A stretch of 64,000 nucleotides of DNA from Girardia tigrina (lineage: Eukaryota). The notes under the pieces were generated by a model. It did not search any database and was not told the origin of the DNA. It saw only the letters and a program-made list of their open reading frames with translations. Within the stretch, counting starts at the first letter, position 1, and every line of letters starts with the position of its first letter. Where the stretch lies: assembly GCA_001938485.1 (NCBI GenBank), contig MQRK01233895.1, positions 1 to 64,000 on the forward strand, read 5' to 3'. Made by a program: the position numbers and the translations under genes. This document shows, in pieces, positions 3,173 to 63,593 of this stretch.

Positions 3173-3203
<31 letters not shown>

Positions 3204-4454: not shown

Positions 4455-4793
4455 TGTATAAAGGATATTAACAGCCGAAGTCTTATTACAAGATTTATTA
4501 CGACTAAAATGGTCTGTAATCAACGTTTGGGGCATGACTTGTTTCTTCAATTGATTCTTCAAAAATTTTCCAAAATCTGCAATGATTAAAACAATTGTAT
4601 TTTTAATTAATTGTTAAATAACAATTAATTTATTATACAATTAGTAATATAAAATTTTAAATTCGACAATAATTGACTTCAATTGTCTAGGGAGAGATGT
4701 CATGCTTCAAACACCAACCAGTCTCAAACATACATTAAAACTCATTCAACAATCACTCAACATCATTCAAACATCATTCCAATATCCCTCATA
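4455..4793 (-). repeat. 3' LTR of the Gypsy element
   Basis: Near-identical to 6697-7032; short terminal inverted repeat AAGGATATT. Confidence 0.92.
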
Positions 4794-6696
4794 TCCTCCT
4801 CTGTTTAAAAGGCTTTAGCCATTCTACATTCCTAATGATTGTTTTCCCGTTTTCTAATTGTAGTTCATAACTTCTCTCATGCACTTTCTTAATTATTATT
4901 GCCGGACCAATAAAACGAAATTCATCTTTCGATGCATTGTTCTTCTTTATTAAAACTTTTTCTCCTATTTCGAAATTTCTGATTGTGCCGATTTTTCCCA
5001 TGTTCTCTTCTTTCCATTTAATTTTTCCAATTGTCTCGTTGTTTTGATTTTACTTTATCCTTCCTGTCTTTCCACCAATGTGTTATTTTTCTACCGAATA
5101 TTATCTCTGCAGGGCTCACTTCATTTGTTGCCTGAATAGTACAGTTCAGCATGAATTCAATTTCCGGAAGTAGTTCCACCCAATTTTATGTAATCCGTCC
5201 TCCATTCGTATACTTATTGCGCCCCTTATTGTTCGAAATTGTCTTTCTATAATTCCATTAGTGTTGTGGTGAGAGGGGATCGAATAAATCAAACCATTAT
5301 TAAAAGTTTTAGCTAATGACTTGGTTAACTTTGAATCGAAAGTTTTCCCCTTATCCATGTGTATTTCCTTAGGAGGACCATGCTTCCAAATCCATTTTTC
5401 CAAAAGGATCCTCTTTATTGATTGTTCATCTTGATGAGCCATAGCGATTAAACATATATATATCTGCTGAAATGATCTATAATTGCAAATATATATTGCT
5501 TATCATGAATATTTTTTTAAAAGGTCCACAAAAATCAATATATATTTTCTGAAATGGTTCCTCTGATATCTGCTTTATAATTTCTTCCTTTGTCTTTGTA
5601 GTTTGTGTCTTTCTTTTCTGACAATTTACACAACTTTGCACGATCTCTTGTTATGATGCTCAGATCTTCCATATCGAAATCATTTTTTATATAATTATAA
5701 ACTTTTTTGGAACCAGCATGACAAAGTAGTTTATGAATCTCTGTAATAAATTCATCTCGTCTTTCTTTTTTTTATTATCTTTTGATATCACTATTCCGTT
5801 AACAAGCCTCCATTTTTCCAATTTATTTAACTTAATTAAATTCTTAATTTCCATAATTTCAGTGTTATTTACTTGCCACATGCAACCTTCTTCTTCTTCA
5901 CTCAATGCTAAAATTTTAGTTTTAATTCTGACTTTTTTCGCATCTTCATGGATTGTTTGGCATTGATTGCACAATTCAGAAGAATTCCTAGATAGTGCAT
6001 CCGCATTTGAGTGTAAACTTCCTTTTATATCATTTCCATGTCCAGGCCACTGAGAAAATTGATCCATGTTTGAAACTGCGGAGTTATTCGGTTTTTTGTG
6101 GACATCATAAACGTAATTGATCAGTTATGATCAGTTCGCAAAAGGAAATTCTTTCCGTATAGAAAGTGTTTAAAATGTTGGGCAAAATAATATATAGCAA
6201 GTAATTCTTTCCTTGTTATGCAGTATACGAGTTCATGTTTATTTAATTTGTGGGAACCTTATGCTATTACTCTTTCTGATCCATATTCGTCTTTCTGTGA
6301 CAAAACTGATCCAATTGTGTCAAAACTGGCGTCCGTATCTAAAATAAATTGTTTCTCTAAATCTGGATAAGCCAAAACAGGAGCCTTTGTCATCTGTTCC
6401 TTAAGTTTCCGAAATGGAACTTCACATTCGTCAGTTCATTTTAAATTTTTTCCATTATTTTTACCACAGATACTTTCTAAAGGTTTAGAATATTGTGCGT
6501 AATTTTTAATAAATTTCCTATAATAATTTGTTAAACCCAAAAAACTCCTAAGATGTTTTATACAAGAAGGACTCTGAAAATTATTAATTGCTTCAATTTT
6601 GATCTCATCTGTTTGAATACCATCTTTAATAATAATATATCCAAGAAACTTAGTTTTCTCAGTCATAAAGTGACATGACATATGGCGTGGTCGCCA

Positions 6697-7032
6697 TATT
6701 AAGGATATTAACAGTCGAAGTCTTATTACAAGATTTATTACGATTAAAACGGTCTGTAATCAGCGTCTGGGGCATGACTTGTTTCTTCAATTGATTCTTC
6801 AAAAATTTTCCAAAATCTGCAATGATTAAAACAATTGTATTTTTAATTAATTGTTAAATAACAATTAATTTATTATACAATTAGTAATATAAATTTTTAA
6901 ATTCGACAATATTGACTTCAATTGTCTAGGGAGAGATGTCATGCTTCAAACACCAACCAGTCTCAAATATACTATAAAACTCATTCAACAATCACTCAAC
7001 ATCATTCAAACATCATTCTAATATCCTTCACA
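6697..7032 (-). repeat. 5' LTR of the Gypsy element
   Basis: Starts TGTGAAGGATATT on the - strand and is followed by the PBS. Confidence 0.92.
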
Positions 7033-7143
7033 CAATGGAAGCAAAATAGTCCGAGATGATACAAGACAAAGAATAAAAGAAAAGAACATCCCTTAAGGAA
7101 ATGAGACCAAAAGAGTATACAAAGTTGGAGATATGGTCTGGAT

Positions 7144-7265
7144 GGTTCCATGACAATTCGACACACGACAATTTGACACAAGACAATTCGACACAATTTT
7201 TTTAATTCGACACAGTAAAAGGTAATTCAGTCTGCCATATTATTTTGAACATAGATTTAAATTTT

Positions 7266-7296
<31 letters not shown>

Positions 7297-8926
7297 AATT
7301 TAATATAAAAAATCATTTTTTATAAAAAAATATGTATTTCATATAAAAATATCAATTTAATATGAAAAAAATCAATTTTTATGGTATTAAAAATAAAATA
7401 TTTGTTTAATTATTTATACTATTTAGACTTTTTCAAATTATTAAATACGATCGATCTGTTCACTATGGAATTCACTACTACTCAGAGAGGTAATTTGGTC
7501 CTTATTTATCTAGAGTTTGAGTACTCTAAATTTCACACTAATAATTGAGTCATAACTTGGAGATGCAGGCAGCATCAAAGTACAAGATGTCATGCTTTCC
7601 TTAAGTCATCTGACGACCATAGTACCATTGTGTGCTTTCCATGTAACCAATCACATCATTCCTGCCCTCAGAAGGTTTTGGCAAACATTGCTCAAAATAA
7701 AATGAAGGTTGCAATGAAAGAAGTAGGTGCCACTACCCGAAATGTGATGTGCCATGCATTACGAAGCTTGATCTTGGACATTCTTGGTCATATGCCTAAG
7801 AAATCATCAATTGTTAGTACCTTGCATAGGCAGAAACAGGCTGATCATATTCCCAATCCAACTGCACCTGACTTTGTGATTCCTGACAAATATTCTGTAC
7901 TAGTTTTGTATGATTCCGGGACTAATGATCCTAACAGAGTTTTCGCATTTGGTGACAGAGACCTGTTACTTAAACTTTGCAATGACACCATTTATGGTGA
8001 TGGAACATTTGACAAGTCACCTGACATATTTTATCAGCTTTATACTTGGCATTCTCAAATAGGTACATAATATCCACCTTGCATTTACTTTCTTTTGCAA
8101 AAAAAGGATACAGAAACCTATCACACGATGTTTCAAATTCTAAAACAACTACTGCCGCAGTTGTCACCAACAAAAATCTTGGTTGATTTTGAAAAAGTAT
8201 GCATGAATGCGGCAAAAGTCACATTTCCCGATGTAGATGTTCGAGGTTGCTACTTTCACTTCTGTCAAAGTCTTATCAGAAAAGTCAACACTTTTGGATT
8301 AAATAATGAATATGAAAGCAACATTGACATCAAACTTAGGCTAAAATCACTTTTTGCCTTGGCTTTTGTGCCTGATACTGATGTCAGGAATGTTTTTGAT
8401 ATTCTTGCTGCAACATTCCCTGATGAGGATAGATACAATGAAATTCTCACATATTTCTTATCAACTTATATTGAGGGTGCTCTTGGTAGAGCTCCTCAGT
8501 TTCCAATAAGATGTTGGAACCATTTCGATTCTGCTGGTGAGCAAACACCAAAAACTACAAATTGTTGCGAAGGTTTCCACAATGCTCTTAATGCCATATT
8601 TCAATGCAGCCACCCCTGTATTTGGACCTTACTTGATGGACTTGGAAGAGATATAACTTGTCACAGACTGACTTTGGTAAATGCACTGTCAGGTCGTTCA
8701 GAGGTTGTAAAGAAAAAATATGTATCATTGAGTGAGGCTATTGCAATGGCTGTGCATGATTACAATTTGAATGCATCGAATGTTGATAAACTGAAATACT
8801 TGCGTTGGCTAGCTAATTTGCAATGAATAAAATGTTAAAAATTAACCTTTACTGTGTCGAATTAATAAATGTGTCGAATTAAAAAATTTGTGTCGAATAG
8901 TACGTGTGTTGAATTGTCTGGTTACC
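7144..8926 (+). mobile_element. Mutator-like (MULE) DNA transposon
   Basis: ~80-bp imperfect TIRs built from AATTCGACAC repeats (7144-7228 / ~8842-8926) flanking a transposase; no clear TSD. Confidence 0.9.
7465..8826 (+). pseudogene. FLYWCH-MULE transposase with two in-frame stops
   Basis: One frame throughout: MEFTTTQRGN..WRC..C (FLYWCH), YGDGTF, LVDFE, GCYFHFCQ, TTNCCEGFH. Stops at 7546 and 8068. Confidence 0.9.
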
Positions 8927-9334
8927 ATGATAGGAACTATAGGCTGAAGGATACACATGATAAACAAATAATACGGAATGTTGAAAAATTAAAAAATTAA
9001 AAAAAAGAATGTGAAGGACAGGTAAAATTTTTGAAATAATTTATTTTTATAAAGCATTTTTAAAATAAGAAAATATTTAAAATCAAAAGTTTTCTAAACA
9101 ATTATAATTAAAAATATCTTTAATTAATTTTAAAAAATTATTTTCGGAAATAATTGAATTTTAATTGTAGTAAAAAGTTAAATTAAAATTAATTGGGAAA
9201 TAATGGATTTTTTAAAAATTATTGATTTAAAAGAAATATATAGAGACAAGGATAATTATGTTTTGTATTAATTTTAAAAGTTATTCTGAAAAATAAAATA
9301 ATGAAATTTTTGTTACCAGAGATGTAAATTAAAA

Positions 9335-9996
9335 AAAACAGATAATTTGAAATTTTAAAGTCAGTTTGAAATTCTGTAAATTAAAGATTTGACAAATATT
9401 TAATTCTAAACAGTTTTCGTAAAAAATAAAAATTAAAACTTTTATCATTAATGTATCGTAATAATAATAATAAATTTGAATATTGTAAATTATTTTTTGT
9501 ATTTAAATTGTATTTAAAATTTGTATTGTATTTAAAAAAATGTAGTTAAAAAATTGTATATTTTTGTATTTTAAATAATTGTAGGTAATAAAATGCTTTT
9601 AAATTGAAATATTGATAATAAATAAAACGTTAAAATCTTTTATTAATTAAAATGTTTTCACAAAAAATAAAATAACATTGAACTAATTCTAGAGTATTAA
9701 AAAATCATATTTGTTAACTTAGTAAACATTATGACTAAAATAAATTATGCTGATTTTAGTTTAAATTAAATTGCATAAAAAAGTGGAATGTAAATTTTCA
9801 AAATGAAGAGAATAAAAAAAATCAATTTTAAAATAGTTTATCAGTATTTATAATTCCATATTTTTATATATAAAGAATCTGATCAAAAAGAAAACGAAGA
9901 AAAGTTCCTCGACGAAAAATTATTTAAATAATTGTTATTTGTGATAGAAATAAAATTTGGTCTTAATGAGTTATAATCTCGATCAAGAATCCAACA
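9335..9996. repeat. ~660-bp AT-rich repeat; second copy at 30730-30949 + 33829-34276
   Basis: Colinear high similarity; the second copy is split by the Penelope insertion. Confidence 0.85.
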
Positions 9997-9999
9997 TAT

Positions 10000-12900
10000 G
10001 TCATGCTCAAATCACTCCCTTAATTTGGCTTGCATATCTGCAGCTTCTGTCGTGGTTCACTCTGTTACATGTTTTTGCACATTGGTGCGATTGTTCTCTT
10101 TCTTTTCCGTATCTACGTATCACTGGGATGTCTTGATTCATGAGACTGGTTGAAGTATAAAGCGGATTGTGGAAAATAGATGGAGAACTCGATCAGATGC
10201 TGTTAATATGTTGGTCGTGACTGCTCTGGAGAAGCTCACCAAAGAAGGAGAATATGTGACTACAAGGTCATATACATCTTTAATTCTATCATCAGTACTG
10301 TCATCTCCATTTCTGTCGCTTCTGAGCCTTTGAAATTCTGTTCTACCAGAGGTCAATGGTGCCCAGAAGTATCTTCAAACAAAAAGACTGGATCTGAATC
10401 AAAGTTCTGTCAGGCTCATAGCTCTGAGAAATTGCATTTTGAAGAAAAGAGAAAAATGATGGACAGTAAATTGGACGAATCCAAGAAGCTCTGTTTTGAA
10501 ATGGGGATAAGCATCGAGCGTCGAATTTGAAAAAAGAAAAGAATGTATGTTGAGGAATTGATTGATGATGTAGCGATGAAATTTGATGCTGATTGTCGAA
10601 GATAGGTTGATTGAGGAAATATATTTAAGATTTCAACAAGTTAATGATCTTGCAAACAAATATGATGTCATTACACCATCGAATCTCTTTGATGATAAAA
10701 ACTATTGTCAACTTGATGAAATAAAAGACAAGGTTGAGAAAAAAGAATTCTTAGCTGTAAGTAGAAGACTTTACTATTTGTCCGAGCTTCAGGAAACGAC
10801 AGAATCAACAGACCTTTAGGACTTTTTAGCTTCATGCAGAGATGTCACCTTGGTGACTCCGTTCATAATATTGTAATCTTGCTGCGCATCTGTCTTACCC
10901 GGTTGCCAGCTGCGAATGCTCGTTTTCCAAACTAAAGCTTATTAAGAACCATCTCCGATCTACAATGAGCAAATCAATGCTTACAGACTTCGCAGTTCTT
11001 CCCGTTTAGAAAGAGCATGCTGCTAAAATGAATTTCGATACTGTTATCAACAAATTTGCAGAAATAAAAGTGCGGAAAGTTCACTTGTAAATTGTAAATA
11101 AAATTGTAAATTTTGAAATGACTTCGTTACTTGGTAATTTTTAGTATTGCAAGAAAACTATGAAATTAAAGTTGTTGTATCTCCGAGGAAGATGAAATAT
11201 ATTTCTTCGTTTTATGTTTATTTGATTTCATGTTGAAATTCAGTTTCTTTCTCAAAAAAAGACTGGTCTTAACCGTCCCACATGTCAAGGGAACATTGTT
11301 CAAGGAATCGTCGCTGTGCTTCGTCACAATCTGTTTCTTCAACGCACTCGTACTGCAAGGATTTTTAGAGGAATTAATCGTATCGAATTGATTAGTCATA
11401 AAGAGATTGATTTGATTAAAAGAAAATTCATTGAATTTTGATTTCCCGGGAACAATTTCCCCATTGACACTCTCGGTTTCGGAATAATCCTCAGACGAAT
11501 TATTAACGACGCGTATTCACGAATTGTAATGATCGGAATTTCTCAAGATAAATTCTTTATATTTTTCAATAGTGAAACAAGAAGGAATCTCATATCTTGA
11601 TAAATTGTATTCAGTCGGAATTTATAATGCCCGATAAACACCGATTCCCCCTCAAATCTATCGACCATGCAGTCTTTCACTACAGCCCAATCGACAAATC
11701 GTCCTGCGTGAATCAAAATCGGCACCGTGGGTGATGATTTCATCCCTGTCAAAGCGCCGAGTGAGTTTTTTAATTGGTTTGTAGAGAAGCAAGAGTAAGC
11801 GAGACTGGCCGGTGATTGATGACTGAGGCGTTCGATTGAAAATAGAACTATTCCCGAATAAATATAAATTAATTTTAAAATGATTGGAAGACAATAGAAG
11901 GAGAAATTTCCTTTATCGAAAGAAATTAGTTTCGATAGCAGCCAGATTTGGAGTTTTCTTTCGAAAGAAAATCCTGGGCGAACAAAAATCAATTGATCTC
12001 TAAAAACATCGCAGCTCAGTTGCATGAACCGTCTCATTGTCACTATTCGATAATCAATCGATAGAAATAGAGCATTTTTATTCTTTGGTATAAAAGCGTC
12101 TCTCATAATCGAATAATATCGATTCAAGAAAGAATTTTTCAAATATTGATTATCTTTATTGATCATTTTCGTGCAATTATGACAATTCGTATTATATGAC
12201 AATTGTCTCTCATGGTCGCACATTCACAGCTCTGAGACAAACTGACAATATTTATGAACAGATGCTGTTTGAATAGAGCTTTTTCAATAGCGGTTTTATT
12301 ACAATGAACATTGAGAAAATCGTCATCCGATATGAGAATTTCTTTCAAAATGGTTGTGATGTGTTTGGAGTTGAACTTTTTTGGAATTTACTGTATCAAC
12401 TATGATTATATGGACTTTATCCATGGAGAATTGCGATTAATACAAACTTAGTTATTCGTCTTTATTTTAGTAAATTATCAATAATTAGTCATTTCAAAAT
12501 TTTTACTTTTTAAAATTTGTGACAATAGTCACGTGTACAAAATGCATTATATTGATGCATTAAAACAAATTTTCAATTTAAAAATTACTTTTATAATTGC
12601 AATTCTTTTATTTAATTTTGACAAATTCTTTACAGAAAAAACTTTAACACACAAAGACAATATGCAACATTTTTTCTCCCAAAACACTACGACACGCACA
12701 CATTAACAAACAATTTCTTTTACACTTTTATAATTCCTATAGTACATGTTATTGTTAAAAGATCTTCAACTATTATTTCATTGGATAATTATATTCAACC
12801 GATTTTTTAAGGTTAGAATTTCGTATCCTGCTGTTGTTAAATGAAACGCACTGTATTCCCATATTTTTATTTAAACAATCAAACTTCAATAGGAATCAAT

Positions 12901-13222
12901 ATAGATAAGCAATAATTCAATTTTTTTGTGATCATTAATCATTATATTTAAATTACTTACTATTTAAATTTATTTAAACTTAATTTAATTATGTTATTTA
13001 ATTTATCTGTTTAATAATTTATTTGATTTAATTAAACTTATTTAGTTAATTTTTTAACATATACTTTTAATTTAATTTATTTAATTTACAAATGGGCTCA
13101 AGTAAGACTCGAATGGAATCACAACGCGACCATAAGTAAGGATTTTGAGAACTCTATTTAATTTTTAGAGAAGACAAATCTTAGGATCGCTCCGGGCGCC
13201 AAAAACAGTTGCTACCCCACTG
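10000..13222 (+). mobile_element. Degenerate hAT (ZMYM1/P52rIPK-like) transposon 3' part, interrupted by a ~2-kb insertion
   Basis: hAT dimerisation domain ASCECSFSKLKLIKNHLRSTM...INKFAEIKVRK at 10900-11090; terminus ...GCTACCCCACTG at 13222. Confidence 0.75.
11166..12423 (-). pseudogene. Disrupted intronless ORF (~400 aa) of unknown function, probably element-borne
   Basis: Track ORFs 12163-12348, 11543-12223 and 11166-11399 can be joined through an A-run slip, a short duplication (AATTGTCATA) and one further frameshift. ATG at 12423; CxC...CxxC motif. Family not recognised. Confidence 0.55.
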
Positions 13223-13321
13223 GGTTAAGAGGAACGATTATCAAAAACAAAAATTGAGTTTTTTCCATTAAGAAATAAACAGGATATGAAAAAAATTATA
13301 ACAGATTCAATAGGAAAAAAG

Positions 13322-14010
13322 ACATTGTGATCGTAAACTGGCATGTTAAGACTTGTGTAAATTTTGCAACAAATCATGATTTGATTGTACTTTTAAAATC
13401 CGCTTTATGATTTAACAGAGCAGAAAAAACTAGATATTCCACAACGTAAACTAGTGTCTCAATGGGTGACGCAGTTCATCATAACTGGTTGGTATGGAAA
13501 TGCGATACCAGTGGAAGAGGAAAAAAATCGTTTTTTTGACTATTTGCTAAACTTTTTGACATGCATGTTACAAATTCACTTACTCTGTACTGACAATGTT
13601 ACGGAAGTAATGCTCTACCTTCGTTAGAATTCCGTTGAAATAGTGCAGCGATGTATTTGATAACTAACCCAAAAATGTCACTGCCAAAAATCATGAATCA
13701 TATATTGCTGGTGTTAGAGAAGACCCATTTGAAAACCTTGTATCGAAAAGATAAAAAAATTTATGCCAGAAAAAGAAAAAAAAGTATACATATGACATGT
13801 GTGAAATGTTACATACCATTATGACCTGAATGTTTTATTTCATATTATTAAAAACTTTAATACCTTTGAGTAAGTGAAAGTTGTTAAAAATAAAAAGCTA
13901 CAAATATATAAAAATAATTTGAATTATATAAAATATAATGTTTTAAATTTTGCACTACTGCCTTCATTGGGCGCGATAGCATCCCTTACAACCCCTATGT
14001 GAAAGATGAA
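13322..14010 (+). mobile_element. piggyBac-like transposase remnant
   Basis: C-terminal Cys-rich remnant (KRKKS...CVKCYIPL.PECFISYY) at 13770-13850 and a degenerate 'TDN' region upstream. Confidence 0.5.
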
Positions 14011-14880
14011 ATTTAATACAATATCAACAATTAATTTTTTTTGAAGTAATATAAAAACGAAAAGTATAAAAATAAATAAAAATATTTATTTGAGATTTAA
14101 TTGGTCAATCGCATTCAATAAGAAAATCACTGAAATAAATTTCTTTTGATAAAGTAAACATATCTTTTTCTGAAAAAAAATTTAGGCAAAATATTTTTGC
14201 AGAAAATAATAATATAATATTAAATTAACACTGAAATCAAATATTCCATTCATTTCCACACAGAAATAGTAAAGCCAACTAAAACACGCTAATACTAAAA
14301 TGAAATCGAATCTTTGGTAAATAAGCGAAACAAAATTAATGTGTCAAACTGAAATTTCTCATAGAAAAATTTAATGAAATTTAAATAAATATTATTAATA
14401 AAAATTTTTTTTATAAAAACAACCACGTTTTTCAAGCATTACCAATGCACTAAAAAGAGGAAAATAATTTTTTTCTAGACATGTGAGAAATTTTATACCT
14501 ANNNNNNNNNNNNNNNNNNNNNNNNNNNNNNNNNNNNNNNNNNNNNNNNNNNNNNNNNNNNNNNNNNNNNNNNNNNNNNNNNNNNNNNNNNNNNNNNNNN
14601 NNNNNNNNNNNNNNNTTATTAATAATATTATTTAACTATTTTTAGTTATCATTTAGGAATTTTTTTTCAAAATTTTTTTTATCAAATTGTATTGTCATTG
14701 GAAGCAAGCCTGTATAAAACTTCATTCATGAAAAGAAACGAAAAGATTGCTATTTAATACAGTGTATAAATTTGTAGATAATCGTAAGTGGTTTTTTGCA
14801 AAAATAATTAGAAAAAATTATTTTTTTTCAAAATTTTTTTTATCAAATTTTTTATCACGGTTTAGGTGCCGGGAGCAAAA

Positions 14881-15301
14881 GGGGCTTTCCATAAATAACG
14901 TCCCGCAGGAGGTGGGGTGGAGGAGGAGCAGAATTTTGTGACGAAGGAGGAGAAGGTATCTGTGAAATGTTAAATCATATCGAAATGATGCACGTGCTTC
15001 AATCCCATCAATTATTAGTCTGTTTATCAGCTTTTATCATAAAGTTTACTGATGAACAAAAACCCAACATCTTAAAAATCGAAGGTTATACATAAATATG
15101 TAATGGCTTACATTGTTAAAAATTTTATAAAAAAAAATAAGATTTTATCACTTTACGATAACAAAAGGAAAATGTAAGGGTGGAGGAAATATTTGTGACG
15201 TCATATTTAATTGGGGGTCAGGCTTTTTGTGACGAAATGTGATGAGTTGAATGATGGTTGAAAATCTGCTAAAATCACGTGAAGTCATTTATGAACAGCC
15301 C
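14881..15301. mobile_element. MITE
   Basis: Imperfect TIRs GGGGCTTTCCATAAATAACGTC / GAAGTCATTTATGAACAGCCC; internal TTTGTGACG repeats. Confidence 0.7.
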
Positions 15302-15508
15302 TAAAGATCATTTACTGATCAAGATTAACACAGTACAACGAATGTGTTTAAATATCAAAAATAATAATGCACGTAATACATTTGTATTTTATTAATAAAT
15401 ACTTTGTTGACGGTGCGATATTACTTTTATATGATATTTACTAATGAAATTTTGCTAAGACGAGTGAAAAATTTAATTTTATATATTTTATATAATGTAA
15501 ATTATTAA

Positions 15509-15880
15509 TTAAAGAAACTTAATTTTACTATATGACACAGTTAATAGTAAAAAGTTTGTTTGGATATTGGACAGGAAGCCGTGTCTCCAGGATATTTTAG
15601 ATAGAGAAGAATTGTTTTTCATTTTGCATGTCAATTGAAAAGTGCTTTTCATTTTATTGAACAAAATATTCAGCGGAATCCCATCTCGTTTACGCAATTC
15701 AAATGTGGCGACATCCCAACCGAGAAAATGATGACACGCATCTTTATCTGCCGGCGCACTCTTTATCGTTGATATGATGAATTCAGGCACCAATTTTAAA
15801 TTGGCTGAACAAATGACTTTCAGTTGTTCATCTTTATATTGGCTTTTAACTTCACGTCCGAGTTTTTCCCACATTTTCAT
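15509..15880 (-). CDS. 123-aa ORF of unknown function downstream of an LTR-like GT-rich leader
   Basis: ATG-initiated ORF forming a higher-GC island in AT-rich DNA; no recognised motif. Confidence 0.35.
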   Translation of the reverse strand: MKMWEKLGREVKSQYKDEQLKVICSANLKLVPEFIISTIKSAPADKDACHHFLGWDVATFELRKRDGIPLNILFNKMKSTFQLTCKMKNNSSLSKISWRHGFLSNIQTNFLLLTVSYSKIKFL

Positions 15881-16459
15881 TATTTTGTCAATTTATTTCC
15901 ANATATTTAAATCACCATAAAATTATTTTATTCAAATTCGAATCAAGAACTTTTATTTGAAACTTTTATTTGAGAAACAAAGACATTGATTCACCTTTTT
16001 TTAACCGTTTTTGAAAATTGATTTAAAAAATTGTGATAACAATTCACAAATAAAATCCATTCTTCACACACGCACAAATTCAACACATGCATGCAGACAA
16101 TTCATCAATCAGTTACATTAAACAAAACACACATACACTGCATCACACCAAAAATTAAAATAAAAATGAGCCTCACCATTTCATTAACTACTCCAACGAA
16201 ATTTGTGATTACATAATTTTACATTAACACATTTTTACATCAAAAGCAATTGATTGATTTAAAAAAATTATTTACTAGTTCTTTTTTAATTTGAGGAATT
16301 TCCGACTTATTTTATACTTTTCGCTCTTCATTTATTTGCTTGAACAATCCCATTTTTTTTGACCGGAGTATTTAATTTACAATTATTTTATTATTTAAAT
16401 ATTATTTTATAATTTATTAATTATATATATTTTTTGTTTACTTATTTACTTATTTAGGA

Positions 16460-16760
16460 ACCAGAAGGTATATGCGACCTGTATTAATTTGGAAAATGCA
16501 TTTGATAATTTTCCACGCGAAGTTCTGTTGGCTTGCATGAAAAGATTCTTTCTCTTATCAAGGAACTCCATAAGAATTTATTTGCGACTGCAGGAAACCG
16601 TATATTTTCAATGGAAAGATGTGTTAGGTAGGGATGTGTGATGGTTTTTTCAACTTGGTCTTCGATGAAGTAATATACTAAGGATATTCAACGATCCAGT
16701 AGATTTAGAATAATACAGAAATAGTCTAAACGAAAGAGAGCTTCTCTACAAGATGAGGAA
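16460..16760 (+). pseudogene. Degenerate RTE-like non-LTR reverse transcriptase fragment
   Basis: ATCINLENAFDNFPREVLLACMK resembles the RT motif FIDLEKAFDRVPREVLW. Confidence 0.55.
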
Positions 16761-16835
16761 TTCAAACATCTGATCAAAGGAGCCATATTTGAGCAATAAA
16801 AAGAGGAAGTCGAAATTGAGAAAGAATATTCGAAA

Positions 16836-17520
16836 ATGCTTCAGTCGCATATAAAACGTGTAGCTTGCATATTTCTTTCTTGCTTTAAAGAATTTGCTGA
16901 GCACAGGGAACTCACAAGACACATTAAGAATGTGCATATAGCAATTGCGCGGACGACACAGAGAGATGGTAATTCATTCATATGTCCCATGGAAAACTGC
17001 CACGAGAGTTACAAAACTGATATATGGCTACAGCGGCATTTTTTAATTAATCATCGAATTCAAAGTAATGGTCCTACGATCACCAAAGTAGTACAAAGAG
17101 CAAAAACAGAGAGACTTACTGGAACTTTGAACTTGAACACGGAACATGATACGGCAGTGTCTGTCGGTGTAACTGATGAGGACTGTCCAGGAGTAATCCT
17201 TAGTGTGGCCCTGAGGTTTTTGCTGGATAATATAATGGATAGGGAAGTCTCTCACTTCCCGTTTCCATGGTGCACTAAGTGTGATTATACAGCCAAAAGT
17301 CTTCAGAATCGAGGAACGAAGGAACATGACTATTCATTTTTCAGGGGGAAGCAAAAGTGTGCCCGTAGATTGAAAGCTCGCACTCTTGCATCCAATGCCA
17401 TGTAAGACTATTAGAAAACTTTGTGTTTGTCAAATAATTTCTACCCCATACAGAGTCTATGATTCACTAACCTGTGCACCAATGCTGAGTATTATTAGTA
17501 ATACACAGTTATCCGTCACA
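16836..17520 (+). mobile_element. C2H2 zinc-finger ORF, probably the N-terminus of an RLE-type (R2/NeSL-like) non-LTR retrotransposon
   Basis: CIFLSC..LTRHIKNVH, FICPMENC..LQRHFLINH and a third CTKC; intronless and truncated. Confidence 0.55.
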
Positions 17521-17964
17521 GTCGGGAGAGACTTTTGTCAGTATTTTTGGAATTCGATATGACTAAAACTTAGCATATTTTTAAAATATTTTACTTGTTG
17601 AAATTAAGTTTATTCAAAATTTATGGGGTATAATAATATGTATCACAACAATATGTGAACTAAGATTTTGATTTAAATATTTTTAAAATGATTGATTGAA
17701 AAAACATCTCAGTAGCTCTATTAACTCAAGTATGGTTCTAAAATAAAAAATAATAAAATAAATAAAAATAAAAAATCATAATTAGACTCTTTTATTTCCT
17801 TTTTATCTGTCAAAAATGTTTTGTAAGGCTTGTTGGAAAATCTTATCATTGAAAAATTTAGGTTTATTTGATCTGTGAGATTTATCTGTACATCTGGAAA
17901 CTGCCAAGACTTAATTTCGAGTAACGATTATCCTTTAACATTATTGGCGTAACTTCATTTAAAG

Positions 17965-31028: not shown

Positions 31029-31950
31029 GATTATGTTCTTTTTTATTACTTTTATATAAGAAATGAATGATTATGCAATCACATACGTAAGTCTAATCGA
31101 AAACTCTTAACAAATTAGTTGAGAGTGCTGTTTGAACATTGATTTTAGGATCACATGATCTTATCAACAATGCTTCACATGANACTCTCTCCCAATAATT
31201 TTTAAAATGCTTGCACAAAATCTTAAAATCATTTATGCTCATATTACATTTACACGTTTTTTTATGCTAAGCAATATTACTCTTTCCCCCTTTTTGACTG
31301 TGTTCTTGGACTCGTTTGCAGAGATGACGGGCAGTCTCTCCGATGTATGTGGCATTGCACCCATTACATGTTTATTGATAAACAATGTCCGAACACAATC
31401 CTAAAGGAGTATGTGATTTAAAGGAGTATGCAAAACATATTCTCAACTTTAAATGATTGAGAAATAATTTTTAAATTTAAATTTAAAATGTTATCTGTTG
31501 ATTTCAAGATCGAATTCTTGAGGTGTTTAAAACCCTCGGAGTAAGGTAAGCTTAGAGTATTCCCAGGTGTAAAGCAGTTTTCAATGTTTAAACTATTAAT
31601 TTTTTCATTTTTGATTTTTTCTTTTTCGATTATTTTATCTACAGTCTCACGAGTGAGTCTACCTATGATGGACTTAGAGTAACCGTCATTAATCAATAAC
31701 TTGCTCAATGTATCAATACTTTTAATAGATTTTGAAAACGTGAAAGAAAGAGACCAAGAGCGGTATAACAAACCTTTGATCATATTCCTTTTATATTTAA
31801 ACTCACAAAAACTGTTTATGGAGGTGTACAAACCAGTATCAGTTTTCTTTCGATATATTTCAGTTTCATAATGATCATTTTTTTCTTTCAATTAACAAAT
31901 CAAGGAATGGTAATTTTCCATTTATTTCCTGTTCTACTGTAAAGATTATA

Positions 31951-42639: not shown

Positions 42640-43219
42640 ATAAATTTTGTGGTGCTAAATTATGACTTTTGGAATTTATAATGCAGTCAAAAGTATTGGT
42701 ATGTCTTTTAGAGCCTCTAAGTGTGCCATTCTTGATATCCCATACAAAAAGAACACACACATAACAATCGACCATGCAGACATACCACATCTTGAAGTTG
42801 ACGAGGGATACATGTACTTAGGATCATTTATAGGTCGCATTGTCACATACACATCTGAGAAACTATTCTCTGACATCCTCGCTGACTTAAATTTTATTAA
42901 CATGTCACTCCTCCTTCCTTGGCAAAAACTGCATGCATACATGTTATTCGAACACTCTAAATTTATCTTTAACTTTAGAAACTCATTCATTCCATTTAGC
43001 AAGCTAACAGAGTTTGTTACAGGATGGGATATCAACATTAGGAGATTTTTCAAGGATGTACTAGGAGTACCCGACAACAAATCAACACCCTACATCTATA
43101 TTTCTCGTTCCAATGGAGGAGCTGGAATGACTTCTGCCATAGATGAATATATAATCCAATCCATCAGTCACTCCTTTTACATGTTAAACTCCACTGACCC
43201 AAATATTTCAGAAGCTGCC
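42640..43219 (+). mobile_element. RLE-type (NeSL/Utopia/R2-like) non-LTR retrotransposon RT fragment, runs into a gap
   Basis: GMSFRASKCA, YMYLGS, LLPWQKL and YIYISRSNGGAGM motifs. Confidence 0.85.
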
Positions 43220-54455: not shown

Positions 54456-54770
54456 TACATCGTGGTGAAACCTAATCAAGCGGAAGTTTTAAAAGGAATG
54501 TTTATTCCGTATTGCGAAAATTGTGGGAGTAAAGAACTTGTACAAGCAGTTGGTATAATCGGAGCTGTCATTATGCCACACAATATGTATTTGCATTCCG
54601 CTCTTGTTAAATCAAGAAATATCAATCGAAACCGACGAGACAAAATTCGTGAAGCAAACTTTTACTTCCTCATCGAATCAGCTTTGGCTTTGTTCGTGTC
54701 GTTTTTAATTAACGTTTTTGTGGTATCAGTATTTGCGGAAGGTTTTTATGGAAAGAATACGACAACCATT
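54456..54770 (+). CDS. Nramp: NRAMP exon (TM6 MPH motif, TM7)
   Basis: tctag| YIVVKPNQ...[24 protein letters not shown]...FYGKNTTTI |gtaagt; metal-binding Met/His residues intact. Confidence 0.97.
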
Positions 54771-55039
54771 GTAAGTTTATTCATCATCATTGAAATATTA
54801 ACATAGGACTAATTCATTAAACTATCTAGATATGATTATAAATTCGAGTTTTTTAAAGTACTACATTTTACTAGAAAAGGTACAACCTGTAACGTATTTT
54901 GACTTATTACTTTCATTTATAAAATGTATTTATTTTTAAAAATTGAAACAAATCTAATGCAATTTACCAAAAATTAATTTTTGAGTAAGATTGTAAGATA
55001 AATTCATCTGGTAGAGTTACAGCCCAGGGGAATTTTTAG

Positions 55040-56235: not shown

Positions 56236-56283
56236 CTGGATGAATGTGAAATTAATAAAGTACCTCATTGGCAAATTTTCAAT
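56236..56283 (+). CDS. Nramp: NRAMP 48-nt micro-exon (TM7-TM8 loop)
   Basis: ttttatactttcag| LDECEINKVPHWQIFN |gtaagt; strong splice sites; conserved loop Cys and PH..F. Confidence 0.8.
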
Positions 56284-56539
56284 GTAAGTTATTAATTAGC
56301 TTATTTCGTCACATAGTTATAAAAGTACTAAATAATTATATAGTTCTATAATGATCCAATCACATATTTTTTAAATGATCGCGTGAAATATACAGTTTAA
56401 GTTAATTTCATCTTGAAATTTGAAACAGTAAATTTTACCGAAAAACGTCGATGATTCCTATATGTATGAATCTGATTTATGTATAACTTGTTTTCATCAC
56501 TTTTTGATTTTCTTTCACTGTTTTCACTATAAATTTAGA

Positions 56540-56855
56540 AGCAGCCTAAGTTTTTGAAAGTATTTATGTGGATATTTGCGGTCTGTGGAAAGAGATTTCT
56601 GGAAAAAGGGAATATATTTTGTACGTTATTGATCAGTCCAGTAAATATATTTCCGTTAACCGCAACATCGAAATAAGATGACGGGTCTATAATAAAATGA
56701 ATTATACAAAATTGTATACTAGAATTTTGCTCTCCAAAGACAATGAATGTTTTTTGAGTCAAAAAAGATGACAGAAATTTGAAATTCGATTCTCTAGTCC
56801 ATATCATCATAACACAAACGGACAAATTAAAAGACAATTTCGTCCAGTAAGAGAA
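56540..56855 (+). pseudogene. Gypsy integrase core fragment
   Basis: IYVDICG..EYILYVIDQSSKY; SSPYHHNTNGQIKRQFR. Confidence 0.7.
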
Positions 56856-57890
56856 CACAACACCGCATGGAAGAAACTCATCACTCAGATCGATGAATCA
56901 GTCTGATCCACGTTCGACAATTGTCCAAATCAATTAAAATTATACCATCGTAAAAGTTTTCAAAGAACTCAATCGAATTTATTCATTTTCTCAAACGAAA
57001 TCATTTAAAGTTGAAAATACCTTCGCAAAATAGGTATCCTTAATAATTTGACAACCTACTGTAAGTAACTCAATTTTTCTTATACTAAATCTCTGGTGGC
57101 TGAAATAGCTAAAGGACCAATTCCCAACAGTTTTTAATATTTGAATTCAGTTAGCTTAAATGAATTGTTTCTATTTTTTTCAAAAACATGTGCCCCCACA
57201 AATGGTGTCTCGAAATCTCTGGATTTCTTTATTTTTCAAATTTATTGAGTTATATTATTAAGTATTAATTTGTAAAGAAATTCATTATCTATTCACATAT
57301 TTTTAAAACGAACTTTATAATTTATTTTATTTGGTTCGTGCTCTATGTCTCCATAACAAATATTTCAAATAAAATAATAAGGTTTTCAGAGTATAAAATC
57401 GTTTAAAATGTTCAGACAAGGGAATATTTAAAGTATTACGAAAAAAGATGTGATGAATATTTGTATTAGTAAAACAGTATTAATATTAGAGCTGATATCT
57501 GTTATAAAAATCAAAATAAAATAATAAATAAAACTAAACAATCTATGGTTAAATATTTGACATTCAAGGGTAAGGAGTTATAAAATATATCTGAAACATG
57601 TCCTGAGATGGTCATCAACCAGGCTTTCATATGACATTATTTATGCGTATCTCTGTCTCGTAATGAACAATATTGATAGATACAATCTTTATACTTAGTT
57701 AAGTTCGCTGATTCGAGAGATTTACGTTAATCTTAGATTTCAAGTTTAATTTATACCAAATTATTTATTAAAATTATAAAAAATCGTAAAAAATATTTTT
57801 ATTTTTCTTGAAATTTATATTTTAATCAGAGAATATATAGACGGTTTGCACATTCATGAATCATTCGAACACGTAATATTATTATACTTG

Positions 57891-58180
57891 TGTGAGGAAT
57901 GTTTTGAATTGTGTGTTGATATTGTGCATGTTTTATGTTGATTCGGATTGTGTCTCTCCTACCCAGATGGATGATTGGTATTTTCTTTGATTCCTACTAA
58001 TTAAAAATAATTTAATTTAATTTTAAAGTAAAAAGATTTAAAATAATTTTTGAATGTATTATTTATTTTTTAATGTAATTTAAAATTTTAATATATTAAT
58101 TTAATGTTTTTTTAAAAAAATGTTTAGATTTAATTTTAACCAATTAGATTCTTTGTAATTAATAATTTTTTATTAACAGA
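57891..58180 (+). repeat. LTR-like repeat family copy (NRAMP intron 6)
   Basis: TGTGAGGAATGTT start; core GTCTCTCCTACCCAGATGG. Confidence 0.75.
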
Positions 58181-58858
58181 TTTTCATTTATTGAAAATAA
58201 TTAGTATGAACTCAGAAATATATCGATCAAGAAAAAAGTCAAATAGTGAATGCGCTTGTGATATTAATAAATGTTGTAAAACTCATATCGATGTTGTTAA
58301 TAACTTGCATAATTACAAACCCGTAATTGTTATGAATGTTCTTATGAACTCCTCCCCAAAACTCCTTTTCTTTACATTATCTGCATGAAATGACTTTTTA
58401 TCTTTTACTCTTTTTAAAATGAAATATTTTTTGTGATCTTTCATTCAATATCATCTAATAAAATATTAAAAAAATACTTTGAGCAATTGACAATTTGAAT
58501 GCGAATATTTACTGATGAATATTTGAGTTAACCTGTCGTTTGCCAAATTCACTATATCCACGCCACTGTGCGTGCAGAACTCTCAAAATACGGATTTTGT
58601 GTTGGTAACAACGCAGGTATGTAATTCCCTTTGGAATGAGTCTTAGTACAACAGTTACAAACGAGACTAATGGTGATATCTATTGAAGTCATCATCTCTA
58701 ATCTCTGATTATTTATTCACATGTTACTAAGAGATGTTTCCATATATTGTATTCCACATCTTCCTTATTGATTCGCGATACCTCTTCACTCTGTTAGTGC
58801 GCTTACTTGACCGCGATAAATCTTCATTTAAAATATTTTTGGTTAAGTTTTAAAATAA

Positions 58859-59096
58859 CAGGGTGCCCCGTAGAAAACCAAAGTGTATTTAATTAAACAT
58901 CGAAATGGAAGTAATTCTCAAGGCCACAACTTAATGAATTCCACGTCTTCGAAAGTGTTGCAACAATGACGGAGAACATTTCGAACACCTCCGAACAGCA
59001 GCTTTATTTATGATTTTTTTTGTTTGCATTTATCACGTGTTTAATTACATACACTTTGGTTTTATAAAATCCTTCGGTTTTCTACTGGGCACCCTG
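58859..59096 (+). mobile_element. mariner-derived MITE
   Basis: TIR CAGGGTGCCCCGTAGAAAACC / GGTTTTCTACTGGGCACCCTG|TA; retains a transposase C-terminus (RLRKCCNNDGEHFEHL). Confidence 0.8.
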
Positions 59097-59539
59097 TAGT
59101 TTACTCATATGTATGAATAATTATATAATATTTCTAATATTTTGATATATACAATTTTGATAATTACAAGTTCTCATTTTTTTGAAATTGAACTTTTGGT
59201 GATGAAATAAAACAGTCTTAGAATTATGTCTTGTTTAAGATTTAGGTTAAAAAATAACGATTAAAAACAACAAAAATTAAAAAAAAATGACTGTAAAATT
59301 CGAGTTTTTAAGGAAATTAGAAATAACTAAAATTATTTATAAATGATGGAATAATTTAATTTATTCAAAATATGAAATAACTTTAAAAGTGACCAAAAAG
59401 TATATAATTTCAATAATTTTGTTCCAAACAAATCTATATAATACTGGTGCCTCGATATATATGTTTTTGCATTTTGAATTTTTATGTAAACGTAAAAAAT
59501 CATTTTACTTTTATTTATTCGGTGAAATATTCGTTTGGT

Positions 59540-60621
59540 GAATCCGGTGTTTTTAGTATTGTCCCTTGCGCCATAAACTGACTAGTAGGAACTATTTTCC
59601 GTGCTGAGATCAACCCTTGTACTAATGTACTCTACAGGCCAAGCCCTAGACTTGAGTAATGTCACCAACAACTCTCTCATCGCCAGCGGATAGAGTCATC
59701 GAAGTCATTTTTGCCATGCTTCACGGGACCGGGGGCATCACGGACCCCCAGATTGCTCAGTGAATGACGTTACATACGATGCATTCCACGCCAGGTCTGC
59801 AAAGTTTGCAATCAGTCCAGCTATCTCATCCTCCCAAAACAAAACATTTCAATAGGGAGAATAAGATTACCGACACTTCGAGCTTACCTCCTTACTCTTT
59901 AGCAGTGCTCAGTTAAAATACCGGTAGCAACTAGCGCTAATTGCTTAGCACCAAAAAAACATTTCAAATGTTACTACCTACTGCCATGAAGTAATTCAGA
60001 CCGTTAGAGGGTACAGACCGCATAACGTCCCTAGTTTAGTTCATGAACTACCACACTGCTCCAATAGATCAGACCTGTATAGATCTCAACCATTAAAAGA
60101 AATCGCTAATATGGGCAAAAACACATTTCAATATACTCACATTTGGCTGATTGAAAAAAAAATCAATCCATTGTTACAATGCGACAGTCCACTATCCGGG
60201 GACACTTCGTGGATGTATTAGTTTATTCTGGCTTGTGCGTGTATACCCTTGACAAACTAGAAACCCTCCCAATCGGCACAGGAGGGTAAAAAATCGTTTC
60301 TAGCCGTCTGAACACGACCCGAATCATGTACAACAAACAAAACATTTCAAAGGTTGTACTTCCTCAGGAAGAGTATATCAGTGAAGCTCACATGTCGTGC
60401 TCTGGAACGTGAAATTAAATTTCTATCCCATTGCTGACTACCGAGTTAAATTAGAGCAGTACAGTGTTCGTGTGTCCTTCGATCGATCGGGCCGAGTAAG
60501 TAAGTCGTCTTACGCATACGTCTTTCGGGTACTTTAGCCTAGAGACAGGAGTCGAACCCGCTCTATTTTCTCAGGGATACTACGTAGAAGTAAACCCACC
60601 TGGCCGCACAGGCGATCCCCG
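59540..60621 (-). mobile_element. ~1.08-kb tRNA-headed SINE-like element, highly structured
   Basis: 11-bp TSD ATTCGTTTGGT (59529-59539, 60622-60632); A-box-like CGGCCAGGTGG and B-box GGTTCGACTCC on the - strand; no ORF; higher GC than the flanks. Confidence 0.8.
60537..60613 (-). promoter_or_regulatory. tRNA-like head / internal Pol III promoter
   Basis: Acceptor-like GCCTG/TAGGC; T-arm GCGGG-TTCGACT-CCTGT; A box 60606-60596, B box 60558-60548; anticodon arm degenerate. Confidence 0.75.
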
Positions 60622-61358
60622 ATTCGTTTGGTACAAGTTCAAGCACCTTGAACGGATTAAAGACGTCTCTCGAGGTACTACTTTATAAGGAATTTTAACG
60701 GCACTTACTTTGTCTTAATATTCTACATAATCTAAATTATTAATTATATTAGATCAATGTTTCTTTAACTGCCGCCCACCAAAAGATACAGAATGTTTGG
60801 TTATTTCATTCTCACCTAAATGATAAACGTCACTTTTTTGATAGTTTATTTACGTAGAGAAGTAAACATAGGGAGGGCGTAGATCATCAGTTACCGTTTA
60901 ACAGTAATTAATAATTAGTTATAGATTGTTATTGTGGGAAACGTCGCTTAAACTTAGTAAGTCCATCTTAAATTGTTAAGATTTTAAATCACAATGGTAC
61001 AGTGATATACTTTTGCCTTCAGTAAATAATAATTAATAATAAAAATTATATAAATAACTCTATTTATCTATGTATCTATTTAACTACGTAGATAGTTTCA
61101 TATCGAGCGGATATCTTAACAGACATCACTGTCGAACATTATATCTATTAGTTCGTCTTATTTAAAAATTTTGAATTTAATTTTTGACACTATAAAATTA
61201 ATGAAAAGTAAATTGAAAATTAAATTTTTCACAATGATATAAATCAAAATATGAACTTTTTTCTCTTTGTTATTTTTTTAAATTTTCCTGATTATCGCAT
61301 GCATTCCAAAATCTGTTTTCAATATTCTAATCATGTAATAACTACATTAACCTATGTA

Positions 61359-62586
61359 CAGCTGTTGCAAAAAGTTTAGCATATTCATAAAAATCACTGA
61401 TTTGCGGAATTCTGTCCTCTATATAAGTATACTAACAGCACACTTAATGTTTTGCATAATTTCACCGTATTTCAGTCAATTATTTTAATGTTCTTTTTAG
61501 ATTTTTGAGAATTGAAGGTCAGACATATCGTATTCATTTCAAGAATGCCGCGAAAACAAGAGGTTACCAACGAAATCAGAGCCATAATTGTTACTTACAA
61601 ATACTGCGGCTGAAAGTGGATGTTTCTCGTCGTGTGCGAATTAACCAGTCGATTGTATCACGTACCTTGAAGAAATACCGAGAACGTGGTGATTTTTCAT
61701 CAGCTTTGCAACGTAGAAGGCCCAGTGTGACATTACCACAAACAGAATGGTACGGCGTGTGTCAACGGAATATGAGTCAAGGAAAATGCAGGAGAATTAC
61801 CAAATCCCCCATCTCTTGGTTTTTGGCTTAAAAGGGTGCAGACTTGCGAAAAAACCTTTTCTCTCTCACAAGAATATAAAGGACCAAAACACCCTTTATA
61901 AGAAGTATGGCTCTTGGACGCCAGAAATGTAGAGTCGTGTGTTATTTTCGATGGAAGTCAATTTTTAATAATTCAATAGTTACATTCAATATGTTCGTCG
62001 TCCAAAAAATACATGCCATAAGCTCAAGTACACATTAGTAACTGTGTGACATTCACTTTTCCTCATGATCTAAGGTTTTTTTCTGTTGAAGTGAGGCAGG
62101 ATATTTGTATTTCTTACCCATGAACACAACGATGAAGGCTCCAAATTTCCTCAATGACGTTTTTGATTTTTGACGTTTTTGCAATCATTTCCAGCACGAT
62201 GTCGCGCCTAGTCATAAGGCCAAATTTGTATCAAACTGGTTGACTGCTGAAGGTATCGAGGTGTTGTCGTGGCAAGGACAAAGCCCAAAACTAAATTCCA
62301 TTGAGAATATTTAGATGAAAATGATACACAGACTTTCAATGGAGAAGCCTTCTAACAAGTTTGACCAGTCGAACTGCCTTTTGTAATGTTCTGTCTGACA
62401 GCATACCTCGTCGTATTCAAGAGGTCTTGAAAAATAAAGGATACAATTCTATATAATGAATTCTGCTTGTTTTCTGTCCATTAATAAGTTGTACTTCAAT
62501 AAATTTTTCTGTGTATGTTTTGTATCTTGAGAATTTTGATATTTTTCTAAATTTCGCTAAATATGCTAAACCTTTTGCAGCTGTTG
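61359..62586 (+). mobile_element. Degenerate Tc1-like (DD34E) transposon
   Basis: TA|CAGCTGTTGCAAAAAGTTTAGCATATT and a matching right TIR; motifs AKKPFLS, FQHDVAPSHKAK, WQGQSPKLNSIENI. Confidence 0.88.
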
Positions 62587-63554
62587 ATATAATCTTGTTT
62601 TCATTAATGTTGTTAATGTTTCTATCCTTTTTCTATTATATTTGATGTTTAGTTTTATTTTGCATGTGTTAGGTTCGGGCATGTTTCAAGTACCCATATT
62701 AGATACAAACTGAAAATTAGACATATTTTCAAAATTATATTTCATTACGAATTTCTGTTTATTTAAACAAATTTCCGAGAAACATTATTTTCTATTAACA
62801 AAACTTTATAAATAAATATAGTGTTATAAATAATAAAATATAGTTATAAATAAATATGAATACTTAAAAATTTCAATTTAAATTTGACCTCCTCAATTGT
62901 CAAATTTATAATTTCTCAATTTTAAGGATTTAAATTTTTTTAATTTTACAAATTTAGTTTCACAATTTTTAAAATTTACAATTTTAAATATTCAAAATTT
63001 TTTGTGAGCACAAAATCCTAAAATGTGTTAATTAAATATTTAAAATAATGGACATAAGTCGAATAAAAAGATTTTTAAATACGAATGAATCTTGTTAGTA
63101 ATTAAATAAATTTACTGTTAAAATTTTTAGTTTAAAAAAGAAACTATAAATTGAAATAAAGGTAAAACGTTTTTATTAATTTTTAAAATTAAATAAATTA
63201 AATCAAAGTAATAGTCTCACAACTTTAAAACAATTCGAAAAAGAACGCATTAAAGATGAAAAAAATTACGTTAGTTCTAAAATTGCAATCAATGACACTA
63301 ACCTTTTCTATACAAAAACTACTAATTTATATATAATACTTTCTTTACCATATCAAATATTTGTATATTAGCAAATAAGATTATTATGTTGAAATTATAG
63401 TTCATGTTCTATTGAATATTTTTAGTCACTGCAATCTGTGTGACTTGTGCTACATCATTTGCATTTAATATAAGAATGAGTCGGTTGAAAAATTTTTTAT
63501 TAAAATAATTGTAAAATTGGAAATGTCATTTATTAATTAATTTTAATTGTTTAG

Positions 63555-63593
63555 ACAACAGATGCCCTCGATGATATAGATATCTACAAAGGG
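63555..63593 (+). CDS. Nramp: NRAMP 39-nt micro-exon (DIYKG); gene continues beyond the window
   Basis: tttag| TTDALDDIDIYKG |gtacgt; matches the NRAMP 'VDIYKG/GVVLGC' motif. Confidence 0.85.

Follow-up and report, generated by a model that had tools for sequence, protein, structure and literature searches.

The ribozyme-headed non-autonomous retroposon is an already known design, and its closest described representatives come from Drosophila, from the trypanosomatids and from derivatives of RTE elements. R2 SIDEs and the hybrid R2/R1 SIDEs of Drosophila lack ORFs and begin with a ribozyme of the HDV-like type, as does, by prediction, the 1,082-nt planarian element described here. According to the available excerpts of PMC3414825, R2 SIDEs are not transcribed by Pol III and are moved in trans by a LINE, which is what we propose for our element, and the hybrid R2/R1 SIDEs show a duplication of 14 bp and are able to acquire foreign sequence in their middle part. 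SIDEs occupy fixed sites in 28S rDNA, and R2Dwi_SIDE measures 529 bp and ends in poly(A) (same excerpts), whereas the planarian element is dispersed, about twice as long and tail-less.

The NARTc, RIME and SIDER elements of trypanosomatids, which share the Pr77/L1TcRz head, are likewise dispersed and non-autonomous and duplicate their target site (excerpts of PMC3185411, PMC4035085 and PMC5814959). The ribozyme of L1TcRz-headed elements cuts at +1, and +1 is a C; the cut predicted for our element falls at the same place, and nt 1 is again a C. The L1Tc head has a second role as a 77-nt Pol II promoter, L1Tc ends in poly(A) and its partner is known. The same excerpts make no mention of a T-arm or of repeated loops, unlike what is seen in the 1,082-nt element.

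RTE-N, WALLSI3, RTESINE and Bov-A have in common with our element the absence of ORFs, short duplications and, as we propose for the planarian case, a Pol II transcript (PMC5786205, in excerpt). These RTE derivatives keep the 5′ end of the LINE, and a ribozyme has been predicted in RTE; they are a few hundred bp long, end in poly(A) or a microsatellite and consist of two LINE ends only, as against a modular body of 1 kb here. Finally, tRNA-derived SINEs (SINE2) resemble the element in being non-coding, in having a B box near the 5′ end and in duplicating their target site. Our element differs from them in that neither its A box nor a cloverleaf is credible, T runs are frequent inside it, a tail is missing and a ribozyme register falls on base 1.

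By analogy, the element appears to work like R2 and R2/R1 SIDEs, NARTc/RIME and RTE-N. We nevertheless keep it outside these classes because the usual tail is missing and the evidence for ends shared with a LINE, sought within the 64-kb window, is borderline. What seems to be new is the combination of a length of 1.08 kb, the absence of a tail, a perfect T-arm with faint tRNA-Sec likeness serving as P4, and one loop repeated identically four times on stems that are unrelated. In the literature covered, which was mostly non-subscription and exclusive of repeat databases, we found neither this family nor any planarian SINE-like element with a ribozyme head described, and no mention of a T-arm or B box in P4. 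Taken together, the observations make it probable that this is a multi-copy, protein-free retroposon with a predicted HDV-like ribozyme head that would cut at base 1, inserted in a subsequent step that a LINE reverse transcriptase likely carried out.

The insert and its genomic setting

The element lies at 59540–60621 on the minus strand of the window, by which we mean the whole 64-kb stretch of DNA analysed here. It is bounded by an exact, unstranded 11-bp direct repeat, at 59529–59539 beside the 3′ end of the element and at 60622–60632 beside its 5′ end, and this 11-mer occurs exactly twice in the window. With a GC content of 44%, the 1,082-nt insert stands apart from the 1-kb flank on each side (29% each). 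The longest stop-to-stop frame on the element strand spans 46 aa; on the opposite strand it spans 90 aa and has no Pfam match. The 3′ end (59540–59569, minus strand) shows neither poly(A) nor a simple repeat in the single copy inspected, and a BLAST of the element against the 64-kb window returned no second copy.

The element strand contains nine runs of T4–T9, and the predicted ensemble leaves seven of them more than half unpaired. Such runs are no more numerous than in shuffled sequence (139 of 1,000 shuffles reach nine), nor are they depleted. An earlier note on this DNA, made from its letters alone, had described an unusually long unit of 1.08 kb with a clean 11-bp target-site duplication, no ORF, a tail-less 3′ end and several T4–T9 runs mostly in hairpin loops; the figures above bear this out, the runs being mostly unpaired. 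As minor features of this one copy, the last five bases of the element are the reverse complement of five bases spanning the 5′ junction (59540–59547 and 60617–60626), which may assist priming or be accidental, and a perfect 8-bp hairpin, seen by eye, lies in single-copy DNA at 60635–60653, three bases beyond the 5′-side duplication.

The host gene is an NRAMP (slc11a) gene, and flanking exon matches place the intron at approximately 56290–63554 on the plus strand. Exons on the plus strand lie at 54456–54773, with 91% identity to Schmidtea mediterranea slc11a-1, and at 56236–56289; a candidate next exon at 63555–63593 is weakly supported (13 aa, E 0.066). The identity to the Schmidtea gene makes a related freshwater planarian the most likely host. 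With the element on the minus strand, the placement antisense in an NRAMP intron given by the earlier note is confirmed, firmly on one side of the element and weakly on the other. Because of this antisense orientation, the ribozyme of the intron copy would be absent from the host pre-mRNA, and the single copy probably has no effect on the host gene.

A high-copy MITE with nested terminal inverted repeats is present at about 58853–59102 (depth up to 75,644 in run X1, one of the public runs introduced below). The same note had looked to sister copies of a MITE for the empty site. We reject a MITE as target: both flanks of the element are at single-copy depth, and the nearest MITE is about 430 bp away.

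A predicted ribozyme head of the HDV-like type

The first 95 nt of the element (60527–60621, minus strand) can be folded into a complete HDV-like double pseudoknot with a predicted cut before nt 1 (60621), as indicated by a descriptor, by folding and by variation among relatives. All of its parts lie on the minus strand. The 5′ arm of P1 (nt 1–7, 60615–60621) forms seven of seven pairs with nt 44–50 (60572–60578) in a pair-by-pair listing and begins on the first base after the duplication, which is the predicted cut site. A P1.2 hairpin found by folding occupies J1/2 (nt 9–24, 60598–60613; nt 9–13 with 20–24), and the 5′ arm of P2 (nt 25–30, 60592–60597) forms five of six pairs with nt 90–95 (60527–60532). 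P3 (3 bp, nt 31–33 with 41–43) and its 7-nt L3 lie at 60579–60591, where they match the descriptor and the register of the R2 core primers in the excerpted PMC3414825, and nt 35–36 of L3 pair with nt 51–52 as P1.1. The P4 hairpin (nt 57–82, 60539–60566) ends in a tRNA T-arm (60545–60561) with a perfect B box (60548–60558), and J4/2 (60533–60538) holds the predicted catalytic C at 60537 (nt 85).

These features are in line with the described ribozymes of this type. HDV-like ribozymes cleave at the first base of P1, and a P1.2 hairpin favours cleavage (excerpts of PMC4908430); the active L1Tc ribozyme has a C at +1 (PMC3185411, in excerpt); and a P1 of 6–7 bp, a mismatched P2 and a variable P4 are normal in R2 ribozymes, according to the excerpted PMC3774820. 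When the stretch P3-L3-P3-P1′ is set by eye beside the R2 catalytic-core primer given in the PMC3414825 excerpts, 12 of 16 places are the same. Two of the four differences make up one compensatory P3 pair, and the pairs of P3 and P1.1 are kept.

A strict descriptor placed P1 on nt 1 in none of 1,000 shuffles and matched anywhere in 2 of 1,000, while a looser one did so in 0 and 20 of 2,000, respectively; on both strands of the window the element core was the only match of the looser descriptor with a catalytic C. Decoy versions of that descriptor also match the element core, together with one to three other cores in the window, and both descriptors were built from a consensus of this ribozyme type after the sequence had been seen. 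Because the descriptors are post hoc and the decoys match too, it is the register on nt 1 and the covariation that carry the weight.

Putative covariation is seen in P2. Three versions of its 5′ arm occur among the relatives, namely those of the window copy, of the majority letters at 60593/60594 and of the loose ends at 60592, and a complementary 3′ arm is found for each, in the window copy, in loose ends at 60548 in X1 and in loose ends at 60548 in X2; these versions are separate majority letters or loose-end consensuses and may stem from different molecules. P2 has a single mismatch in the window copy and six of six pairs with the majority letters, and the majority letter at 60566 closes one additional pair in P4. 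Of the two readings of the head, that of a self-cleaving ribozyme of HDV type, its cleavage being a prediction, is thus most likely preferable to that of a tRNA.

Searches elsewhere returned little that resembles this head. The Rfam ribozyme models do not match it in either the 2.2 kb or the 161 nt searched, and a descriptor search yielded neither a second HDV-like core nor a ribozyme on the opposite strand. One hammerhead core-like heptamer at nt 255 lacks closing stems (by eye) and has no Rfam match; a retrozyme or Penelope-type element was rejected on these missing stems and on the presence of a single unit rather than a tandem. The exact 19-nt core has no match in the metagenome and viral contig collections, and a gapped core pattern found 11 metagenome and 2 genome loci, none of which resembles the element beyond 14–16 nt. 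Among these 13 loci, one has a convincing HDV-like fold, six pass the looser descriptor only and the rest pass neither. The convincing case, at L001:1130–1209 (plus strand) of an unrelated metagenome contig, has the same P3/L3/P1.1/J4-2 core, an 8-bp P2 and six of seven P1 pairs, and lies in AT-skewed repeat-like DNA near eukaryote-like reading frames. Five near-identical loci (L003, L004, L007, L008 and L011, around 2001–2072) combine a 16-nt core match with weak stems and pass the looser descriptor only; their core match is probably due to chance.

The earlier note had read the same bases as a tRNA head with A and B boxes and a tRNA-like fold, and had offered read-through of Pol III terminators as one option. 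The B box stands: it is perfect and sits within a T-arm of 5 bp and a 7-nt loop, a combination reached by 1 of 5,000 shuffles of the first 120 nt. The A box does not, as it has two mismatches, is equalled in 1,330 of 5,000 shuffles and is replaced in contigs of abundant relatives. It corresponds to P1.2 and the start of P2, while the B box forms the tip of P4. Nor is the tRNA-like fold confirmed, since the minimum-energy structure of the head segment is not a cloverleaf (z 0.15) and forcing an acceptor stem costs 2.4 kcal/mol. ARAGORN called no tRNA, and the Rfam search that the note had proposed found nothing on 2.2 kb and, on 161 nt, only tRNA-Sec far below threshold (a score of 14 bits where 47 is the cut-off; E 2.4). 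That alignment maps the D arm to P1.2, the anticodon loop to L3 and the T arm to P4, and leaves many pairs broken. Because the B box and T-arm exceed chance, a tRNA may still have contributed to the head.

The alternative that survives best takes this contribution at face value. The head would be a real ribozyme whose P4 T-arm also acts as a Pol III promoter through the B box, possibly a legacy of a SINE head that resembled tRNA(Sec). Pol III would then make the shorter relatives, and the long form would travel as a passenger of Pol II or arise by read-through. The canonical T-arm, the weak tRNA-Sec alignment over P1.2, L3 and P4, and contigs of relatives whose alignments span the B box (a contig from run X9, piece 17, and loose ends at 60548) point in this direction, and a precedent exists in the first 77 nt of L1Tc, which are Pol II promoter and ribozyme at once (excerpts of PMC3185411 and PMC5814959). 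The sub-threshold score and broken pairs of the tRNA-Sec alignment, the chance-level A box and the freedom of P4 to vary in the R2-type class (PMC3774820, in excerpt) speak against it, as do a T6 at nt 329 and a T9 at nt 460, which would stop Pol III. We regard this dual use of the head as unlikely.

Less probable still is an ordinary SINE of tRNA origin whose T runs Pol III reads through and in which the ribozyme fold is a coincidence. This reading of the earlier note has on its side the B box and T-arm, a tRNA-like A–B spacing, T runs that mostly lie in unpaired stretches and a tRNA-like fold within 2.4 kcal/mol of the best one. It would leave to chance a ribozyme register on nt 1 that no shuffle in either set reproduced, and it must accommodate nine T runs, a missing tail and the lack of any tRNA call. 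In addition, the apparently matched changes at nt 25–30 and nt 90–95 disfavour a cloverleaf because both stretches lie outside the tRNA fold. Pol III transcription of a tRNA head with terminator read-through is therefore most likely the wrong explanation, and we retain the predicted ribozyme. More generally, annotation based on the B box can mislabel ribozyme-headed retroposons as tRNA SINEs.

Relatives, probable polymorphism and the modular body

Contigs of four public runs (X1, X2, X3 and X9) were aligned to 58900–61300 at 80% likeness. X1 is possibly the source of the assembly, which leaves X2 as the one possibly independent run. Depth over the flanks is that of single-copy DNA (contigs at 87–91 in X1 and 20–32 in X2). 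Bins of the element body reach 3,229–16,193 in X1 and 2,129–9,513 in X2, the stretch 60034–60195 reaches 39,531–67,644 in X1, and the head bin, at 197,209, lies far above the body. Contig depths added together do not give a copy number; as a loose guide, they would correspond to between tens and a few hundred relatives for the long body, and to thousands in the case of the head. X3 contributes 33 partial reads on the flanks only, and comes from another organism or holds no copy.

At joints in the mapped contigs, relatives leave out 36, 85 or 236 bases or have their modules connected in a different order, and contig depth indicates that the head and one module are common to far more abundant genomic families with other bodies. 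The X9 piece mentioned above is a 461-nt contig at depth 4 that carries a related ribozyme head (60522–60592) on a different body, from which it follows that several families share the head; that X9 is RNA is a guess, and its contig says nothing about expression of the 1,082-nt element. The claim of a multi-copy retroposon with a structured non-coding body is thus upheld, with copies that differ by modules.

In X1, contigs span both junctions with no differences. In X2, one contig stops exactly at 59539 and another starts exactly at 60622, so that two different sequences must lie between these edges of the 11-mers, the simplest pair being an allele with the insert and one without it. The insertion is therefore probably still polymorphic, with the empty allele deduced from the X2 breaks.

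Within the body, the same 9-mer occurs four times, at 60342–60350, 60123–60131, 59959–59967 and 59844–59852 (all on the minus strand), followed each time by U-rich bases; any 9-mer occurs four times in 1 of 2,000 shuffles. Hairpin loops hold three of the copies, and the remaining one flanks a hairpin. The first copy is in a hairpin loop (local z −1.4); the second (local z −0.5) belongs to a module common to a much more abundant family, and its stem is improved by the majority letters at both 60135 and 60114 (pairs assigned by eye). The third is single-stranded beside its hairpin (local z −4.1), and the fourth sits on a long stem (local z −4.9). The stems around the copies are unrelated, as none of 12 flank comparisons beats shuffles (best 79 of 500). 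For this reason the modules are not simple duplications, and an origin as tandem duplicates was rejected on the same comparison. The repeated 9-nt loop likely serves to bind a protein.

The fold of the whole element has a z of −2.9 (12 shuffles) against −1.8 for the other strand, and it is branched, not rod-like. Only 3 of 13 body windows of 150 nt fall below z −2, most being no better than shuffles. Among the 28 listed differences inside the element, 19 are transitions, and 16 of these belong to the two kinds by which pairs on the element strand are preserved (P 0.0008). When all changed places are totalled, this strand bias does not appear. The bias fits an RNA intermediate of the element strand, with selection on structure, errors of reverse transcriptase or polymerase, or editing also possible.

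A non-coding, structured body of about 1 kb with a repeated loop motif, and with LINE homology that is only borderline, could also be expected if the copies had been reverse-transcribed from a structured ncRNA of the host, or from a satellite or viroid-like RNA replicating through an HDV-like ribozyme. We consider such an origin quite improbable. The head and one module recur on other bodies in more abundant genomic families, the fold is branched where a rod would be looked for, the opposite strand has no ribozyme, and neither an Rfam match nor a telomerase template was found in the element. The absence of the exact 19-nt core from the viral and metagenome collections argues in the same direction. 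That the locus is an assembly artefact or a chance repeat, to which the 2,870 N in the gapped window assembly might lend some colour, is scarcely credible given X1 contigs that cross both junctions and X2 contigs that break exactly at the duplication.

A proposed route of mobilization and a candidate partner LINE

For the ribozyme-headed retroposon that we favour, source copies would be read through by Pol II from host promoters, so that T runs would not stop transcription. The ribozyme would then free the element's 5′ end from the longer host transcript by self-cleavage at nt 1, and a LINE protein, most likely of RTE type, may bind the structured 3′ part and prime at a staggered nick. The long body may have grown by gain and loss of hairpin modules that each display the same U-rich loop, which most likely binds a protein and could aid packaging or stability. 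The window copy appears to be recent and polymorphic; its antisense orientation means that it would not cleave the NRAMP pre-mRNA and would not be co-transcribed with it. The same logic has been described for SIDEs and for intronic RTE elements (excerpts of PMC3414825, PMC6765202 and PMC5786205). The paradox of a Pol III unit that moves despite its terminators would dissolve, because a ribozyme head allows co-transcription by Pol II without terminator read-through, and a testable ribozyme mechanism takes its place.

As to the partner, excerpted reports name only RTE, Ingi, Vingi and R2 as sources of ORF-less bipartite derivatives. RTE duplications are mostly ≤13 bp, a range that includes the 11 bp found here; RTE insertions have a T run about 10 bases upstream as their signature, and RTE elements usually end in short repeats (PMC6007223), unlike the 3′ end of our element. 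The window itself holds a 5′-truncated LINE tail at 16672–17575 (plus strand), comprising a reverse transcriptase C-terminus with C2H2 fingers (16672–17402; 72% to P0121, a protein with RT plus C2H2) followed by a short 3′ UTR with hairpins. No flanking duplication of at least 9 bp was found around this tail. Comparing the 3′ end of the element with the 3′ UTRs of resident LINEs, as the earlier note had advised, gave a borderline outcome only: the match between the last 120 nt and the UTR at 17406–17600 was equalled in 18–63 of 1,000 shuffles under permissive settings and in about 530 of 1,000 under strict ones. The best-scoring 3′-end tile, at 45301, was discarded as a gappy chance alignment. 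An RTE-type partner, with the finger-bearing tail at 16672–17402 as candidate, is our first guess because few LINE types give rise to ORF-less derivatives, RTE duplications are of this size and a tail of RT and C2H2 fingers lies in the window.

A bolder picture would join a tRNA(Sec)-like/ribozyme hybrid head with a working B box to a body that serves as a multivalent scaffold assembled from unrelated hairpin modules, whose loops capture the zinc-finger reverse transcriptase of a LINE or a stem-cell RNA-binding protein; the element would then be an RNA parasite that grows by adding binding sites. We hold this to be as doubtful as the dual use of the head. Should the four loops bind a LINE protein, they would represent an RNA signal chosen by a LINE reverse transcriptase, of relevance to RTE-type elements and to RNA-templated gene insertion. 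Should the T-arm descend from a tRNA, we would have in it a rare record of how one structured RNA was remodelled into another. Judged by depth, one ribozyme is available in this family in thousands of natural variants for studies of covariation and activity.

Other fragments in the window resemble, by eye, parts of mobile elements. An R2-superfamily LINE fragment at 42659–43219, the end of a Penelope-type reverse transcriptase at 31418–31891 and a Tc1-type transposase at 61460–62300 have no Pfam match, and a Gypsy pol-like fragment is located at 4789–6759.
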